From contig JBAMLI010000078.1 of assembly GCA_039793645.1 (NCBI GenBank), positions 2,485-26,484 on the forward strand: a DNA stretch of 24,000 bases, read 5' to 3'. Shown one piece after another: positions 17,216-24,000 of this stretch. The notes under the pieces were generated by a model that was not told where the DNA came from, ran no database searches, and saw only the letters and a list, made by a program, of their open reading frames with translations. The stretch is from an archaeon. GTDB taxonomy: Archaea > Micrarchaeota > Micrarchaeia > Micrarchaeales > CABMGC01. Every line of letters starts with the position of its first letter. Position 1 is the stretch's first letter. The translations under genes were made by a program, and so were the position numbers.

Positions 17216-18190
17216 ATGCTTTTCTTTTGCCTAATAGATTTATATAACCCGACAGTGGTAGGAGTATACTCTGCCCTTCTCATTGCATTTTTGCTTGGCA
17301 TAATTCATGGAATAACGCCTGATGAGCATACATGGCCAATAACATTTAGCTACGCCATCGGCTCTTACAGCACAAAGAAAGGTGCCAAGGCTGGGCTCCT
17401 ATTCTCGCTTGGCTTTACTGTCCAGAGGGCGATTTTTGCCGAACTTGCATACATTGCTCTAGCACCTCTTTTCTTCTCCGATTGGTTCGATGCTGTAGTT
17501 TTCGTGCTCGTTGGAATTGTCATGGCAATCTCAGGCTTCTATATATTGAGGAAGGATATCTACCTCCACTGGCATTGGCTTGCCAATGTAGTATGCAGAT
17601 TCTTCCACTCTTGCATAGGGGTGCACGATAAGGATATATATGAGAAGGAGGGATTAGGGAGCCACGACATGTTTGCAAGGCACAAGGTTCTTGAACCTAG
17701 GTCTGTGCCGCTTAGGCTTACTTTCATACATGGTCTTATAGCAGGATTTGGATTTGGTGCTTTTGCACTAATACTGTTTACAGTGATCGTCCCTGCAATG
17801 CCAAACGTTTGGGTTGCATGGGTCCCAGGCTTCCTCTACGGGCTAGGCACCATGGTGATGCAAGTAATACTTGGTGCAGCCATAGGTGCTTGGCTAAAAA
17901 AGAGAAAATTTGCAGAGAACCAGATCGCCTACATAGCCAGAAAGACTTCTGGAAGGATGCTTGCATATGGTGGAATTGCATTTTTCGTAGCTGGCATGTT
18001 GCTCTTTTTCTTCCCGAGCCTAAATGAATACAATATAGTAACCCCTTTGAAAATACACAACCTTGATTCTCTTGGAATTGGATTCTTCCTCGTTATTATC
18101 GTAATTGTAATTATAGCAATACCTTCATATAAGCTTGCCGTGAAGGAGGCAAAAGCACTTAAGCAGGAAAATGTAAATAGCAGAGATTAG
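17216..18190 (+). CDS. Integral membrane protein, possible metal-ion transporter (two TM bundles separated by a His/Cys-rich loop)
   Basis: 324 aa with about 8 TM helices. It has an IIHGITPDEHTWP motif in TM1 (reminiscent of H-x4-P-[GD]-H in NicO/RcnA-type proteins). The central loop is YLHWHWLANVVCRFFHSCIGVHDKD...GSHDMFARH (nt ~17549-17710). The functional call is tentative. Confidence 0.55.
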   Translation: MLFFCLIDLYNPTVVGVYSALLIAFLLGIIHGITPDEHTWPITFSYAIGSYSTKKGAKAGLLFSLGFTVQRAIFAELAYIALAPLFFSDWFDAVVFVLVGIVMAISGFYILRKDIYLHWHWLANVVCRFFHSCIGVHDKDIYEKEGLGSHDMFARHKVLEPRSVPLRLTFIHGLIAGFGFGAFALILFTVIVPAMPNVWVAWVPGFLYGLGTMVMQVILGAAIGAWLKKRKFAENQIAYIARKTSGRMLAYGGIAFFVAGMLLFFFPSLNEYNIVTPLKIHNLDSLGIGFFLVIIVIVIIAIPSYKLAVKEAKALKQENVNSRD

Positions 18191-19152
18191 CGCTCCTTCT
18201 TTTTTATAATCCTGCAAAATTTTTTAAGGTCTGCCTCCATCCTCTTTCTTGTTTTTGGAAACCTTAATGCTGCGGCAGGATGATATGTTATAAAATAAGT
18301 TATCCCTCCTCTATTTGTCTTCTTGCCATGGTTGGCTTCGATATTCTCTATTCCAAGCATAGCTTCTGCCGCTACCCTCCCTAATAGTATAATAAACTTT
18401 GGCTTTACAATCTCTATCTCCTTTTCCAAGAAAGGCTTGCATAGCTCAACCTCCTTTTTTGTCGGTTCCCTGTTCTTAGGAGGAAAAAACTGCACAACAC
18501 TTGTTATATAAAAATCTTCTCTGCTTAGCATTGCCTTCTTGAGCATCTCATCGAGAAGTCTACCGCTTCTTCCTACAAAAGGCCTTAGCATTTGATCTTC
18601 TACCTTACCAGGAGCTTGGCCAAGCAGCATAGCTTTTGCATTTAATGGCCCTTCTCCTGGGACAAATCTTTTGCCAAGGCTCCAGCCCCTCAATTTGCTT
18701 AACTGCTTGTATTTTTTGTTCAGCTCTTCCATTGCTTCATATCTTTTAATGTAGTCATAGGCTATTGTAAGCAACTGCTTCATGTCCTTGTACTTCATTC
18801 TTTCCATAGCCTTTTCATATCCAAGCCATACATATCCTTTATGTTCGGATGAAATCTTTATTGTAGCATTTTCACCGACTTTAGAAATGAAAGTGGCCAC
18901 TCTTTTAAGTACTCTTTCTTTGCCTTCAGAAAAGAAATACCTGTTTACATATTTGAAATATGGCAAAAACTCCACATCTAGCCCAGTTTCTTCTTTTATC
19001 TCCCGTTTTGCAGTCTCCATTGCAGTCTCATTATTCTCAAAATGCCCTTTGGGTATATCTAACTCATTTTTATGTGAGATAAGAAAAAGGAATTTTATCC
19101 TACCATTTTCTTTTTTGTATATAATGGCGCCTGCCGAAAAATCAAACATCAT
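18187..19152 (-). CDS. Nudix hydrolase / family-4-type uracil-DNA glycosylase fusion protein
   Basis: The N-terminus has a perfect Nudix box, GHFENNETAMETAKREIKEETGL (G-x5-E-x7-R-E-U-x-E-E-x-G-U, nt 18979-19047). The C-terminal UDG family 4 motifs are GEGPLNAKAMLLGQAPGKVEDQMLRPFVGRSGRLL and ...HPAAALR. The start is 6 nt after the archaeosortase stop. Confidence 0.85.
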   Translation of the reverse strand: MMFDFSAGAIIYKKENGRIKFLFLISHKNELDIPKGHFENNETAMETAKREIKEETGLDVEFLPYFKYVNRYFFSEGKERVLKRVATFISKVGENATIKISSEHKGYVWLGYEKAMERMKYKDMKQLLTIAYDYIKRYEAMEELNKKYKQLSKLRGWSLGKRFVPGEGPLNAKAMLLGQAPGKVEDQMLRPFVGRSGRLLDEMLKKAMLSREDFYITSVVQFFPPKNREPTKKEVELCKPFLEKEIEIVKPKFIILLGRVAAEAMLGIENIEANHGKKTNRGGITYFITYHPAAALRFPKTRKRMEADLKKFCRIIKKKER

Positions 19153-19158
19153 AAGAAA

Positions 19159-20664
19159 CTACCTGAACAACTTTTCATTTAAGCAATATGCGCTTTCAAG
19201 CCTGCTCATGGTTGTGGAGTTGTAAATTCCAAGGTTGAAGAGACTATAAAATGTGCTGTATAAATGGGAGTAGTTGCAGCTCAATCCAAGGAAGCCTGCG
19301 CTCTCAGGCATGACCGCATATTCAGCCATTATGCCATACCCTCCATTGTAGACATATGGCACTTTTTTGATTGCTACAAAATAGACAGAATTATTGTAAT
19401 ATACCTCATATATCTCGGTGTTTATCCCATCACTCCCCATGAAGGTAGCATGAGCTTCTATGCTAACGTTTGAAAAGAGCGCCTTTTCTGCCTCTTTGTT
19501 TGGAGGCTCAACAAGCATCGATATTGGATTGCTTGCATTGAATGTTGAGTTTGCAAAGAGTATCACCTCAGAAGAGTTTGAGAATGTATATGAAATGTAG
19601 TGGAAGCCTGTAGCGTTTACGCTGCTGGCTATGAATCTATCAAATTCAGCCCCTTCAAGAGGCGTTGAGCTGTGAGGAATTGCAGGAGAGAAGGAAGCGC
19701 TATTGGCATAGTTTGAAAAAATGGCTAGATAAATAAGTGCATATATTATAGGAAGAGCGAGCGAGAAAATTGCGAGCCTGCTGTATCTCTCTTTTACCCT
19801 CGATTTCTTTCCTTTTTCTATCTTGGGAATTTTAAGGCCAAACAGGCTCGGAATGAGAACAATTATTACTACTGTTGCATAGAATATTGCCATGCCTGCA
19901 AAGCTGTGCGCAAATGAGGCGCTTGCATTTGGCCCATAATAGAACCATGAGAGTGCAATGCCGAACATCCTTGCGATGTTCAACAAAAGAAGCACCGCGA
20001 ATCCAGAGAGCACCCAAAGAACCTTCTTGCTTGCTTTGCCCTCGAAAAGGTAAGCAAGCGGTATAAGAAACATCACAATTCCTATAAGTGCACCTATGCC
20101 CGCACAGCTTTCTCCAATACCCAATGTATAGTTCTTCCCTATTATGCTTATGGGCGGCACAAATATGATGCTCTTGTCAAGCGCATGCAATACCCAATAT
20201 ACTATATATGCATTCATCTCGGCAAACACTTGGTTGAATGCAAACAAAGGAGCAAGCAAAATTGGAGAAGCAAACATTGAATATATTAATAGGGCTTTGA
20301 ATTTGTTGATTTCCCTGAGCCCAAACATGGTTATGGCTATGCTTGCTATTGCCAACGGAAAGACAAGCATGTCAAGCCTGAAGCTCATGAAGAGGAATGA
20401 AAAGTAGTAGCGGAGATAAAATATTAAGAGCAAGAGAGCTGCAAACAGAGACAATCCAATTAAAATATCTTGCCACTTTGCACTAGGCTCTATCTTTTGC
20501 TTGAAGACAAATATCCCAAAAAGCGGGAGCATAATCATTGGTACAACGATATATGTAGAAGGATCTGTGTCAAGTATGCTGCTAGGCGTAGCCATCAATG
20601 GGTTGAAAAGCATTATCACCAAAGCAGCTATGAAAGCAGCGATATATACAATTCTTTTTTTCAT
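19159..20664 (-). CDS. Archaeosortase/exosortase-family membrane protein with extra C-terminal TM and extracytoplasmic domain
   Basis: A polytopic N-terminal ~320 aa carries the family triad context: LGIGESCAGIGALIG (Cys), LLLLNIARMFGIAL (Arg) and AHSFAGMAIFY (His). One more TM and a ~180-aa domain with 8 N-x-S/T sequons follow. I prefer the ATG at 20664 (MKKRIVYIAAF...) because a GAGGA SD lies 7 nt upstream. The track start is the GTG at 20697. Confidence 0.65.
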   Translation of the reverse strand: MKKRIVYIAAFIAALVIMLFNPLMATPSSILDTDPSTYIVVPMIMLPLFGIFVFKQKIEPSAKWQDILIGLSLFAALLLLIFYLRYYFSFLFMSFRLDMLVFPLAIASIAITMFGLREINKFKALLIYSMFASPILLAPLFAFNQVFAEMNAYIVYWVLHALDKSIIFVPPISIIGKNYTLGIGESCAGIGALIGIVMFLIPLAYLFEGKASKKVLWVLSGFAVLLLLNIARMFGIALSWFYYGPNASASFAHSFAGMAIFYATVVIIVLIPSLFGLKIPKIEKGKKSRVKERYSRLAIFSLALPIIYALIYLAIFSNYANSASFSPAIPHSSTPLEGAEFDRFIASSVNATGFHYISYTFSNSSEVILFANSTFNASNPISMLVEPPNKEAEKALFSNVSIEAHATFMGSDGINTEIYEVYYNNSVYFVAIKKVPYVYNGGYGIMAEYAVMPESAGFLGLSCNYSHLYSTFYSLFNLGIYNSTTMSRLESAYCLNEKLFR

Positions 20665-20749
20665 CAAATCGTCCTCAGTCGATATAGGCTTCATCACCTT
20701 TCAGCAGTTACTCTATTCTTCACAGGACAGATTTACTTCTGATTCTACA

Positions 20750-20780: not shown

Positions 20781-21215
20781 ATGCAACGGATAAAATTTAG
20801 ATACCTGCCCCATACAGCAGATGTAAAGTTTGTAGCATATGGGAAAAGCTTTAAGGAAGCATTGGAGAATGCAGCAAAAGCGATGCTTGGCATAATGCTC
20901 GATATTAAAAAAATAGAAAATTCTAGCGCTAAGCCAAAGAGTATACAAATAAATGAATCTGCAAGCACAAAGGAGGACCTTGTGTGGTTTACTTTGCAGG
21001 ACCTGCTCTCAAAGATAGATGAAAAAGCACTTAATGCGTATGATTTTAAGGTAACCAAGCTTGAAGGGGTGAAAAAGCTAAAGCTTAAGGGCAAGCTTTT
21101 CTTCAAAGAAGTAGGGAAGGATTACCATCTTTTGGAGATAAAAGCAGTAACGCCGCATGATCTGCGGGTCGAAAAGGCAGAGAATTGGAAAGTTTTTGTA
21201 TTAGTTGATGTTTAG
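20781..21215 (+). CDS. Archease (RtcB tRNA-ligase / tRNA m5C methyltransferase cofactor family)
   Basis: 144 aa. FRYLPHTADVKFVAYGKSFKEALENAAKAM (the H-T-A-D...G.....a signature), and the C-terminal ...EIKAVTPHDLRV... is typical of archease. Confidence 0.85.
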   Translation: MQRIKFRYLPHTADVKFVAYGKSFKEALENAAKAMLGIMLDIKKIENSSAKPKSIQINESASTKEDLVWFTLQDLLSKIDEKALNAYDFKVTKLEGVKKLKLKGKLFFKEVGKDYHLLEIKAVTPHDLRVEKAENWKVFVLVDV

Positions 21216-21260
21216 CAATCTCTTGAATTTCAGTAAGCAGCTCTTTTTGGCATTATTAAG

Positions 21261-21331
21261 AGCCAGGAGAGGGAGTCGAACCCCCCTTTGCCGCTCTGCA
21301 GGCGGCCGCATAGCCGATCTGCCATCCTGGC
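21261..21331 (-). tRNA. tRNA-Cys (anticodon GCA)
   Basis: Hand-folded, 71 nt. The acceptor is GCCAGGA/TCCTGGC. The anticodon stem GCCGC/GCGGC has loop CTGCAGA. The T arm is GGGGG-TTCGACT-CCCTC. The discriminator is U, the tRNA-Cys identity element. The D stem is short (3 bp). A TATA-like CTATTTAAAAAG lies upstream. Confidence 0.9.
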
Positions 21332-21426
21332 ATTAGGTTTTTGGCTTCTTTTTAAATAGTTTTTTGTTTATATTTATGCAGGGAAGGTATTTAATTTTTA
21401 AATAAAAATGTTTTTATGGGATTTGG

Positions 21427-22560
21427 ATGAGGGCAATTGAAAATGTTCCAAGCGAGTTTGTTTCAGAAACAGTAACTTTTGATTACAAAGATCCAGTAAC
21501 AGAGGCGATTAGCAAGGTAAAGGACTATACAGCAGTTATAGTAAACAAGAATGATGAGTATTATGGGATTGTAGACGATAGGACGCTCATAAGAAAGGGA
21601 GCGATAAAGCTCAATAAAAAACAGTCAATAGGCAAGTTCGCGAAGAAGGTCCCAACTCTAGACAGATCGACTACAATAGAAAGGGCGATAATGTACTTTT
21701 ACTATGAAGGCGTGAAGGCTCTGCCATATTCTGATGAAGATAAAATAAAAGGAATTGTCAAGAGGACGGAGATACTTAAAGCCATTCTCTCCCTTCATCT
21801 GCTCTCAAAATATAAAGTGGAGAACGCTATGACTTCGCCAGTGATAGGAATTGATGCTGATGCAAATATAGCCCAAGCAAAGGCCGTTATGGCTAAAAAC
21901 AAGATAAACAGGCTTGTGGTAATAAAAAACGGGTCATTATACGGGCTCATAACATTCAGGGAGATAGTGGAGACATTTGCAAAAGCAACAGAGAGATCGC
22001 CTCAAAGGAGGAATTATTATTACACCCTTAGCAACACCCCAGTGAGCAGTGTATGCCAAAGGAGCGTGCTTGCTATAGAGCAAGAAAGCCCTCTTGAAGA
22101 TGCAATAAGGCTTATGGTAGAGAGGGGAATTTCTTCATTGGTAGTGACAAAGAACGACAAGCCTGTGGGCATTGTAACTGTGAGGGATGTCTTCGGCCTT
22201 ATAGTTTCTTTAAGCACAGAAGAAGAAAACAAAATAATAATCTCAGGCTTAGACGACTATACAAAAGAGTATGAGGAAGACATAAGGGCTGAGCTCAACG
22301 ACATGGTGAACAAGATAAACAGGTTCAGCAAAGTAAAAGTTGATTATGTCGCATTAAATGTAAAGAGGTCAAAGGTCAGGAACTATGAGATGCATGCCAA
22401 GGTGGTTTTGAAAAAAGGCGGTTCTGTGGCAGCTTCAGCCACGGGATACAGTATGAGCAGCGTGTTAAAAGAAATAATTAATAGGCTATACAATGAGGTG
22501 AAAGAAAAGAAGGAGCTTATCATCGCCCAGTTTAAGGGCAACAGTATTGTGGTATTATGA
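21427..22560 (+). CDS. Four-CBS-domain protein with C-terminal HPF/RaiA (S30AE)-like domain
   Basis: 377 aa. There are four CBS-like repeats (...YYGIVDDRTLIRK; ...IKGIVKRTEILKA; ...LYGLITFREIVE; ...PVGIVTVRDVFGLI). The C-terminal aa 269-362 resemble hibernation promoting factor (see findings). A TATA-like TTTAAATA lies 22 nt upstream of the ATG. The stop overlaps the next gene's ATG (ATGA). Confidence 0.8.
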   Translation: MRAIENVPSEFVSETVTFDYKDPVTEAISKVKDYTAVIVNKNDEYYGIVDDRTLIRKGAIKLNKKQSIGKFAKKVPTLDRSTTIERAIMYFYYEGVKALPYSDEDKIKGIVKRTEILKAILSLHLLSKYKVENAMTSPVIGIDADANIAQAKAVMAKNKINRLVVIKNGSLYGLITFREIVETFAKATERSPQRRNYYYTLSNTPVSSVCQRSVLAIEQESPLEDAIRLMVERGISSLVVTKNDKPVGIVTVRDVFGLIVSLSTEEENKIIISGLDDYTKEYEEDIRAELNDMVNKINRFSKVKVDYVALNVKRSKVRNYEMHAKVVLKKGGSVAASATGYSMSSVLKEIINRLYNEVKEKKELIIAQFKGNSIVVL

Positions 22561-23022: not shown

Positions 23023-24000
23023 ATGAGGATTCAACTTTCGCTTGAGTTCCTTATAGTATTCTCCTTTGTGCTACTTGTTTTCATCTTCATGTTTGCACTT
23101 ATTTCTAATGAGAGGTCACTGGGGCTTGGAGACCAGACATTTTCGCAGCTGCAACTGCAAGCACAAAGCATAGCAAGTGCAATTGACTCTGCAGTACAGG
23201 CAGGCAACGGCTACTCTAGTTCAATTTCTATAGCGAGCCTTATAGGAATAGTACCATACAATGTGAGTATAACAAAGAATGGGGTGGTAATACTTCAAGC
23301 AAAGGTGGGGAAACAAATCGTTAAGGCTGTTGCATACAGCACAGCGAAGAATGTAGTTTCCAATTTAGCTTATTATTATCCCCAATCTAACCAGTATATA
23401 ATACCAATATCAAACGGCACCATGTATATACAAAATTCATTTGGCAATATATGCATAGATTACCAATGTGCAACCCAGAGCAACCAAGCAAAATCAATTT
23501 TCTTGTCAAGCCAAAGCGTTTATGCAGCTGAGTTCAGCGGCCCATGGTCAAGCACTAACTACAACTCTAAAAGCTTAATAAAAGCAAGTGCACCTATTTC
23601 AGGCACAAATTATCCTTTCACCTTAACGATGTGGATCAAAGCAAGCAATGTGCAGGATTTCAGCCATTCATGGACTACAGCTGTGTTCTCTTTTTCAGGA
23701 TACCAGGCTTTTGGGCTTCAGAACAATTGCTTGCCTAATACATGCTTAGTATTGCACAGGTGCTCATCTGCAGACACATCTAGTGGCGTCTTGCTTCCAT
23801 ATTCTATATTTAACAACAAATGGTATTTCATAGCTGTTTCTGTAAATTACCCAAATTATTATTGGCAGATAAACAACATAAGCTCTACAGATTCAAATTC
23901 AAATAGCTATAGCAGTTCAACGCCAGTTACTATAGGAACACAATTTGCACAATGCGATAGCAATGCATTTAATGGGAGTATAGCAAATGTCCAGGTTTAC
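23023..24000 (+). CDS. Large pilin-like protein with class III signal peptide and LamG/concanavalin-A-like lectin domain (3' partial, runs off the window)
   Basis: This ORF is not in the supplied track because it has no stop. I translated it by hand from the ATG at 23023: 326 codons, all open to nt 24000. The N-terminus is MRI|QLSLEFLIVFSFVLLVFIFMF. From about aa 165 it reads ...YPFTLTMWIKA...WTTAVFSF...NKWYFIAVSVN...YWQINN...PVTIGTQ...FNGSIANVQVY, the classic LamG (Laminin_G_3) pattern. Confidence 0.7.
   Translation, partial: MRIQLSLEFLIVFSFVLLVFIFMFALISNERSLGLGDQTFSQLQLQAQSIASAIDSAVQAGNGYSSSISIASLIGIVPYNVSITKNGVVILQAKVGKQIVKAVAYSTAKNVVSNLAYYYPQSNQYIIPISNGTMYIQNSFGNICIDYQCATQSNQAKSIFLSSQSVYAAEFSGPWSSTNYNSKSLIKASAPISGTNYPFTLTMWIKASNVQDFSHSWTTAVFSFSGYQAFGLQNNCLPNTCLVLHRCSSADTSSGVLLPYSIFNNKWYFIAVSVNYPNYYWQINNISSTDSNSNSYSSSTPVTIGTQFAQCDSNAFNGSIANVQVY

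Follow-up and report, generated by a model that had tools for sequence, protein, structure and literature searches.

A Micrarchaeia protein joining a CBS tetrad to an HPF-like domain is a probable orthologue of the archaeal ribosome hibernation factor HibA/AHA

Described archaeal factors of the CBS-HPF type

Ribosome hibernation factors that join a tetrad of CBS domains to a domain of the HPF/RaiA type have been described in archaea independently, as Hib or HibA ('A new family of ribosome hibernation factors in Archaea', Madru et al., bioRxiv 2025.10.11.676729, 11 Oct 2025; Nat Commun 2026, PMC13324472) and as AHA (AMPKgamma-HPF from Archaea), the product of HVO_2384 of Haloferax volcanii (Souza et al., bioRxiv Feb 2026, PMC12934967), which has the HibA architecture under another name. 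Here we analyze a gene of this kind at positions 21427-22560 of a 24,000-nucleotide (nt) stretch of DNA from a Micrarchaeia archaeon (assembly GCA_039793645.1, contig JBAMLI010000078.1, positions 2,485 to 26,484 of the forward strand; 'the window' from here on). An earlier reading of this stretch, made from its letters only and called the original prediction below, had proposed that the gene encodes an adenylate-sensing, CBS-dimerised ribosome-silencing factor, and had left open whether such a fusion was already catalogued for archaea.

HibA is reported to occur in 47% of archaeal genomes, in all major lineages, and its members are 'typically annotated as CBS domain-containing proteins' (PMC13324472); the AHA survey lists 3,160 homologues in 17 archaeal phyla (PMC12934967). 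The fusion architecture is thus not new, and the novelty implied by the original prediction has to be given up. Its remark that HPF is usually treated as a bacterial and plastid family was true until 2025 and has since been overtaken by the HibA and AHA papers. Micrarchaeota are not named in the main text of either paper (PMC13324472, PMC12934967), and the HibA supplement includes 130 Micrarchaeota genomes in its database, without calls of presence or absence (PMC13324472).

The cryo-electron microscopy structures of HibA and AHA show a single chain folding its four CBS domains into an intramolecular disk; this disk binds the 50S subunit and thereby bridges both subunits of one 70S ribosome (PMC13324472, PMC12934967). 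The HPF domain sits at the 30S site that is also used by bacterial HPF, where it contacts h44, h28, h24, h23, uS12, uS9, uS19, uS11, uS7 and the decoding bases (PMC13324472, PMC12934967). Three poses of the CBS tetrad on the 50S subunit were described for Pyrococcus abyssi HibA, at the peptidyl transferase centre (PTC), at uL5 and at the L1 stalk, and in the PTC pose a loop mimics the CCA ends of tRNAs (PMC13324472); in AHA, 'loop 3' of CBS3 enters the PTC and two AMP molecules are bound at the CBS3/CBS4 junction (PMC12934967). In vitro, HibA acts as an inhibitor of translation, for which its C-terminal domain is required, and deletion of hibA in T. barophilus doubled the lag after stationary phase and lowered 70S ribosomes by about 60% (PMC13324472). 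Loss of viability and of ribosomal proteins in stationary phase is seen in cells without AHA (PMC12934967).

A further set of CBS-tetrad proteins, Dri and SriA-D/ARC of Thermoproteota and Methanosarcinales, are ribosome-bound hibernation factors too, some of them nucleotide-responsive. They differ from HibA/AHA in having no HPF/RaiA domain; in them a second CBS tetrad or a partner protein closes off the mRNA channel, and their phyletic distribution is largely exclusive with that of HibA/AHA.

Family assignment of the window protein

Among solved structures, the best sequence match of the 377-residue window protein is 9sr9_H, i.e. P. abyssi HibA (Q9UYR4, PDB 9sr9 series; 392 aa, deposited as 'Dehydrogenase'), and the alignment runs from end to end: aa 17-363 vs 16-373 with the single sequence (E=3e-18) and, in one stretch, 18-365 vs 16-374 with a profile of 48 orthologues (E=3.9e-32). 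The same profile also covers the whole of 9l96_a, a chain of 406 aa named 'CBS domain-containing protein' (21-372 vs 16-390, E=6.3e-32). Chains of this type are found in four PDB entries (9l96, 9l98, 9l9c, 9l9v), and 9l96_a is probably another solved member of the HibA family; our literature search found no paper citing 9l96, and 9sr9 was cited there only by the Hib/HibA papers (Madru et al., bioRxiv Oct 2025; Nat Commun 2026). No PDB sequences other than HibA and 9l96_a gave a full-length collinear match. Because the window protein is collinear with solved HibA, combines four CBS domains with an HPF fold, and carries both the extended CBS3 loop and the CBS3/CBS4 nucleotide motif, we assign it to the HibA/AHA family and conclude that 21427-22560 very probably encodes a Micrarchaeia orthologue of the archaeal hibernation factor HibA (= Hib, AHA).

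The orthologues in the profile were taken from a homologue search that returned 163 proteins at E<=1e-5. The best 120 of these 163, from which the 48 were chosen, are almost all 363-396 aa long, and their named sources are metagenome-assembled genomes (MAGs) of Micrarchaeota/Micrarchaeia and 'Marsarchaeota'. Proteins identical to the window product have been deposited from several Candidatus Micrarchaeia MAGs (e.g. GCA_049973015.1), with no name other than 'CBS domain-containing protein', the label that HibA bears in databases as well; the source names among the homologues also include 'predicted transcriptional regulator', an automatic name from JGI. A wrongly placed start of the open reading frame (ORF) was considered and rejected, as the N-terminus MRAIENVPSEF is conserved in the 48-orthologue alignment, P8 and E10 being wholly or almost invariant.

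Matching the original prediction, which had seen four CBS repeats followed by an HPF-like peptide (aa 269-362, nt 22231-22512) in this ORF, Pfam finds four CBS stretches in the protein (E=1.4e-37), and AlphaFold2 (AF2) models four beta-alpha-beta-beta-alpha units with a predicted local distance difference test score (pLDDT) of about 90. With the full-length model, Foldseek returned only CBS tetrads, namely 3ddj, SriA, MJ1225, Dri and AMPKgamma (E 1e-17 to 1e-14; SriA 9znf_4 E=4.4e-17, Dri 9e6q_3 E=3.4e-16). The ribose-binding motif G-h-h-[TS]-x-x-[DN] is canonical in CBS4, where G and D are invariant (48/48) and the T/S position is likewise kept in all 48 orthologues, and mostly kept in CBS3 (T/S in 44/48, D/N in 41/48; the window protein has E179 at the latter position), whereas it is degenerate in CBS1 and CBS2 (Table 1). 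This pattern fits the published site, and an adenine-nucleotide site is predicted at CBS3/CBS4. Between CBS3 and CBS4 lies an extended loop of 20-31 aa, present in 48/48 orthologues, in which an Arg and a Pro recur among the sequences listed. It is unstructured in the AF2 model (pLDDT <50 at aa 187-195) and its region aligns with P. abyssi HibA around residues 190-207, the loop that inserts into the PTC. The likeness to AHA is drawn from its published description rather than from the HVO_2384 sequence, and the number of AMP sites to be expected in the window protein (one or two) is read from its motifs.

Several points weigh against the assignment. Ribosomal_S30AE (PF02482) is the next-best Pfam family after CBS and covers aa 283-363 (profile positions 11-85 of 88), but its score is below the gathering cut-off of 23.7 bits, both for the last 114 aa scanned alone (18.1 bits, E=0.0045) and for the whole protein (14.3 bits). 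When a C-terminal-only profile was compared with PDB sequences, E. coli HPF ranked first with no better than E=0.07, and the C-terminal domains of P. abyssi HibA and 9l96_a were not retrieved at E<=10; because this profile misses HibA, the sequence link to HibA runs mainly through the CBS module and the collinearity. The PDB copy used for Foldseek ends at 2026-04-08 and lacks 9sr9. In the species group of the window (orthologues with at least 68% identity) the C-terminal tail is hydrophobic (KGNSIVVL), which sets it apart from most other orthologues. Finally, ribosome binding and effects on translation are known just from HibA of P. abyssi and T. barophilus and AHA of H. volcanii.

Judged by the single sequence, to which the NCBIfam model of E. 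coli HPF also gives a match of E=0.012, resemblance to HPF would be the best hypothesis without being significant. As the sequence search with the C-terminal region alone was indecisive, we therefore turned to fold prediction and transitive searches. The AF2 model (pLDDT 84.6 and predicted template modelling score 0.80 for the whole protein; pLDDT 84.9 for the C-terminal domain alone) has the order beta1 (269-273), alpha1 (280-298), beta2 (305-315), beta3 (319-328), beta4 (333-340) and alpha2 (343-369). Searching the PDB with the C-terminal model, Foldseek filled ranks 1-19 exclusively with HPF, RaiA/YfiA/protein Y, plastid pY/PSRP1, RafH and N-domains of long HPF (E 5.4e-6 to 4.5e-3, probability 1.00, template modelling (TM) scores 0.6-0.8), followed only by unrelated matches of low TM score. 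Among the top group are spinach pY (5x8r_y, E=5.4e-6) and E. coli HPF (6h4n_x; TM 0.81 normalised by target length, root-mean-square deviation 2.6 A over 101 columns). [quoted passage not shown]

The transitive searches lead to the same family. PF02482 is matched at E<=0.01 by 20 of the 48 orthologues (best 1.5e-5), and no recurring family besides CBS and PF02482 emerged when all 48 were scanned with Pfam. Aligned by hhalign with E. coli HPF, the C-terminal-only profile gives E=4.2e-5 with a probability of 69.6% over 74 columns; HMMER and hhalign both pair VDYVALNVKR and GGSVAASATGYSMSSVLKEIINRLYNEVKEKKE with segments of E. coli HPF, and the register of the alignment that the original prediction had made by eye is correct. 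In a scan of 1.84 billion representative proteins (E<=1e-3) this profile retrieved 101 proteins, most of them 350-400 aa long and matched at their C-terminus (residues about 260-375), with a minority of short standalone proteins. Nine out of ten such short relatives match PF02482, which for eight of them is the sole family listed, and four of the ten exceed the gathering threshold (24.5-31.3 bits). At the level of sequence, these standalone relatives tie the domain to the HPF/RaiA family by a link that is transitive and has statistical support. Since E<=0.01 is reached by 20 of the 48 and the threshold is passed by four of the ten standalone relatives, we consider the homology to HPF to be real and the window sequence to be a divergent archaeal branch that cannot be called by Pfam. 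A chance similarity between amphipathic segments was rejected in view of the PF02482 matches of the standalone relatives and of the Foldseek ranks 1-19.

Compared with bacterial and plastid HPF, RaiA (YfiA, pY) and PSRP1, with which it shares the fold and motifs in register, the C-terminal domain stands apart by its score under the Pfam threshold, its fusion to an N-terminal CBS tetrad and the lack of a known RMF partner. Relative to E. coli HPF, its beta2-beta3 hairpin is extended, and so is its terminal helix; a terminal helix longer than that of E. coli HPF is also described for AHA (PMC12934967), and alpha2 of the window protein is predicted to span 27 residues. The window protein differs from P. 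abyssi HibA in being 377 rather than 392 aa long, in a loop sequence that is not conserved between the two, in the short hydrophobic tail (basic and then acidic in most other orthologues, e.g. KKSGGGRYE or REAERYYGE) and in its host, a DPANN archaeon of mesophilic or acidophilic type instead of a member of the Thermococcales. The two sequences are, in fact, only distantly related.

Mechanism suggested by the homologues and competing readings

By analogy with HibA and AHA, the following course of events can be proposed. Under starvation or stress, the basic HPF-like domain would enter the 30S subunit's mRNA/tRNA channel at the A and P sites and block the binding of mRNA and tRNA. The CBS tetrad of the same molecule would lie on the 50S subunit, where the extended CBS3 loop could reach into the PTC; contacts with uL5 or with the L1 stalk would be alternative poses. 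With its HPF domain on the 30S subunit and the CBS tetrad of the same chain on the 50S subunit, one monomer would therefore clamp both subunits and give an inactive 70S ribosome that is protected from degradation. The suggestion of the original prediction that such a fusion silences ribosomes is consistent with the described homologues, and its suggestion of adenylate binding agrees with dissociation constants (Kd) of the P. abyssi HibA CBS module of 12 uM for AMP, 65 uM for ADP and 113 uM for ATP (PMC13324472) and with the two AMP molecules seen in AHA (PMC12934967). In the window protein, too, the CBS3/CBS4 interface may bind AMP, ADP or ATP and may couple binding or release to the energy charge. 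Energy sensing by a HibA-type CBS module is, however, just plausible, and its extent is unsettled even for the characterised homologues, because AMP or ATP altered the ribosome-bound states of HibA only slightly (PMC13324472).

This small effect of nucleotides also speaks against an alternative within the same family, namely that in a DPANN archaeon with a reduced genome the protein acts chiefly as an HPF-like plug bound to the 30S subunit, the CBS module being merely a switch for nucleotide-controlled release rather than a 50S clamp. Standalone HPF/RaiA-like proteins are indeed known mostly from DPANN and Nitrososphaerales, and HibA has also been seen in 30S-only complexes in which its CBS module is mobile (PMC13324472); in ARC, a separate system, release from the ribosome is set off by ATP, and the CBS3 loop of the window protein differs in sequence from that of P. 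abyssi. However, a full-length CBS module with the extended loop is kept in 48/48 orthologues, and with a median net charge of +11 and an isoelectric point (pI) of 9.6 across the 48 this module is strongly basic, as would be expected of an rRNA-binding surface. In the window protein itself both modules are basic (pI 9.4 and 9.0), the HPF-like core having a pI of 9.4. We therefore consider a mere 30S plug unlikely and keep to the two-subunit clamp of the HibA/AHA type.

The original prediction had favored another mechanism, in which a CBS-mediated dimer silences ribosomes, the CBS module replacing the dimerisation domain of long HPF and tethering 100S-like pairs of ribosomes. Many CBS-pair proteins do dimerise, and a self-association of the free protein is compatible with everything we computed. 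Helix alpha2 is followed by just 8 residues, which are predicted to be disordered and in which Pfam finds no domain; there is therefore no room for the C-terminal dimerisation domain of the 100S-forming long HPF of the Firmicutes type, as a dimer by way of the CBS module would presuppose. Yet the four CBS domains of one chain pack into a disk of two Bateman modules in our model as they do in HibA, and because this disk is intramolecular a second chain is unnecessary. Within one 70S ribosome, the tetrads of P. abyssi HibA and Haloferax AHA dock on the 50S subunit; the complexes described in the passages of the two papers considered here are 70S and 30S only, and factor-bridged ribosome dimers are not mentioned there (PMC13324472, PMC12934967). 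Also, aRDF and PurH with aEF2, which the introduction of the HibA paper cites as factors that dimerise archaeal ribosomes, are unrelated proteins (PMC13324472). Ribosome pairing through the CBS module thus appears highly improbable, and this part of the original prediction falls.

Least probable of all is that the protein is a CBS metabolic sensor or transcription regulator whose C-terminal alpha/beta domain is HPF-like by convergence and does not bind ribosomes: although the automatic name 'predicted transcriptional regulator', the existence of an archaeal CBS-tetrad transcription factor (HhpR, family CM-3; PMC13324472, PMC12934967) and the sub-threshold PF02482 match of the single sequence would speak for it, no DNA-binding domain was detected by Pfam or NCBIfam, the C-terminal fold is specific to HPF/RaiA throughout Foldseek ranks 1-19, the standalone relatives provide an above-threshold transitive link to PF02482, the only solved structures that are collinear over the full length are HibA and 9l96_a, and the protein has the CBS3 loop by which ribosome-binding CBS tetrads are marked.

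Gene neighborhood and meaning of the assignment

At 21397-21404, within a very AT-rich spacer, we observed by eye a TATA-like TTTAAATA whose centre lies ~27 nt upstream of the start codon (ATG at 21427); its position would be compatible with an archaeal transcript that is leaderless or nearly so. The archease gene upstream (Table 1) is found upstream in the related locus L009 as well, and a proteasome subunit takes its place in L001. Synteny of the archaeosortase-like gene and the unusual NUDIX-uracil-DNA-glycosylase (UDG) gene with the HibA-like gene extends across Micrarchaeota; in L009, NUDIX and UDG are encoded separately.

Downstream, a small pilin-like ORF forms a pair with the HibA-like gene in each of the five lineages compared, even where HibA identity is as low as 41%. 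Across these loci the pilin-like protein is 57-91% identical vs 41-81% for the HibA-like protein, hence more conserved. It has two invariant Cys near its C-terminus, and its N-terminus ([KR]-A-Q-S-S-F-E-L-L-I-T-L, then a hydrophobic stretch) resembles by eye a class III signal peptide of archaeal type IV pilins; Pfam gave no match for this ORF and its orthologues even at E<=1. The ORF that comes next in the window corresponds to a Laminin_G_3 surface protein, which in related contigs is 380 to more than 1100 aa long. In a contig of the same species (L004, 11597-16902) the LamG gene is succeeded by two T2SSF genes and a T2SSE ATPase, i.e. by a type IV pilus-like assembly locus, and in Micrarchaeota and Marsarchaeota the HibA-like/pilin-like pair often adjoins a LamG protein, an archaeosortase and a type IV pilus assembly locus. 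The two genes of the pair overlap or abut, and their translation may be coupled. One could go further and propose that DPANN episymbionts co-express hibernation and the apparatus for surface or host attachment as one programme, coupling dormancy to attachment or detachment; we regard this as very unlikely, the plainer reading being that the pair is an inherited gene order without a functional link.

Table 1. Features of the window and of the related loci discussed in the text (aa, amino acids; positions in nt of the respective sequence)
Feature	Position	Strand	Basis and remarks
Gene of the HibA/AHA family (probable), complete	21427..22560	+	377 aa plus stop; ORF list and translation
CBS1 (about aa 10-60)	21454..21606	+	Pfam, AF2; motif G47-I-V-D-D-R-T, degenerate, without canonical Thr/Asp pattern
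CBS2 (about aa 66-123)	21622..21795	+	Pfam, AF2; motif G109-I-V-K-R-T-E, non-canonical, degenerate
CBS3 (about aa 130-184)	21814..21978	+	Pfam, AF2; motif G173-L-I-T176-F-R-E179
CBS3-CBS4 extended loop (aa 185-205)	21979..22041	+	equivalent to 'PTC loop' of HibA and 'loop 3' of AHA
CBS4 (about aa 206-263)	22042..22215	+	best Pfam CBS stretch (aa 206-259); motif G248-I-V-T251-V-R-D254, canonical ribose-binding motif
HPF/RaiA-like domain (aa 269-369)	22231..22533	+	AF2, Foldseek, PF02482, hhalign
C-terminal tail (aa 370-377, KGNSIVVL)	22534..22557	+	predicted disordered; pLDDT <50 for aa 366-377
NUDIX plus uracil-DNA-glycosylase fusion	18187-19152	-	unusual fusion; beside archaeosortase-like gene
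Archaeosortase/exosortase-family membrane protein	19159-20697	-	PF09721, E=5e-19; C-terminal extension of roughly 220 aa
Archease gene	20781-21215	+	PF01951, E=5.8e-27; activator of RtcB tRNA ligase; upstream of HibA-like gene
tRNA-Cys(GCA)	21260-21331	-	immediately upstream of HibA-like gene
Pilin-like ORF, 152 aa	22557-23015	+	start overlaps HibA-like stop by 4 nt (ATGA)
LamG-type ORF	about 23023-24000	+	frame of 23002; just after pilin-like gene; runs off window end
Pilin-like ORF, locus L001	5131-5586		related locus
Pilin-like ORF, locus L002	5130-5591		related locus
Pilin-like ORF, locus L008	5124-5609		related locus
Pilin-like ORF, locus L009	5139-5630		related locus

Taken together, the window gene is very probably an ordinary Micrarchaeia orthologue, uncharacterised until now, within a known family, and no new biology follows from it. 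The value of the assignment lies in the annotation, as the names 'CBS domain-containing protein' and 'predicted transcriptional regulator' can be replaced by that of a hibernation factor of the HibA/AHA family. It would also mean that Micrarchaeia have a well-conserved full-length HibA and not only the standalone HPF-like form known from DPANN. HibA/AHA is regarded by three or more groups (2025-2026) as the main ribosome hibernation factor of archaea; the family extends the HPF domain to archaea, possibly to the last universal common ancestor, and ties translational silencing to energy sensing of the AMPKgamma-like type.

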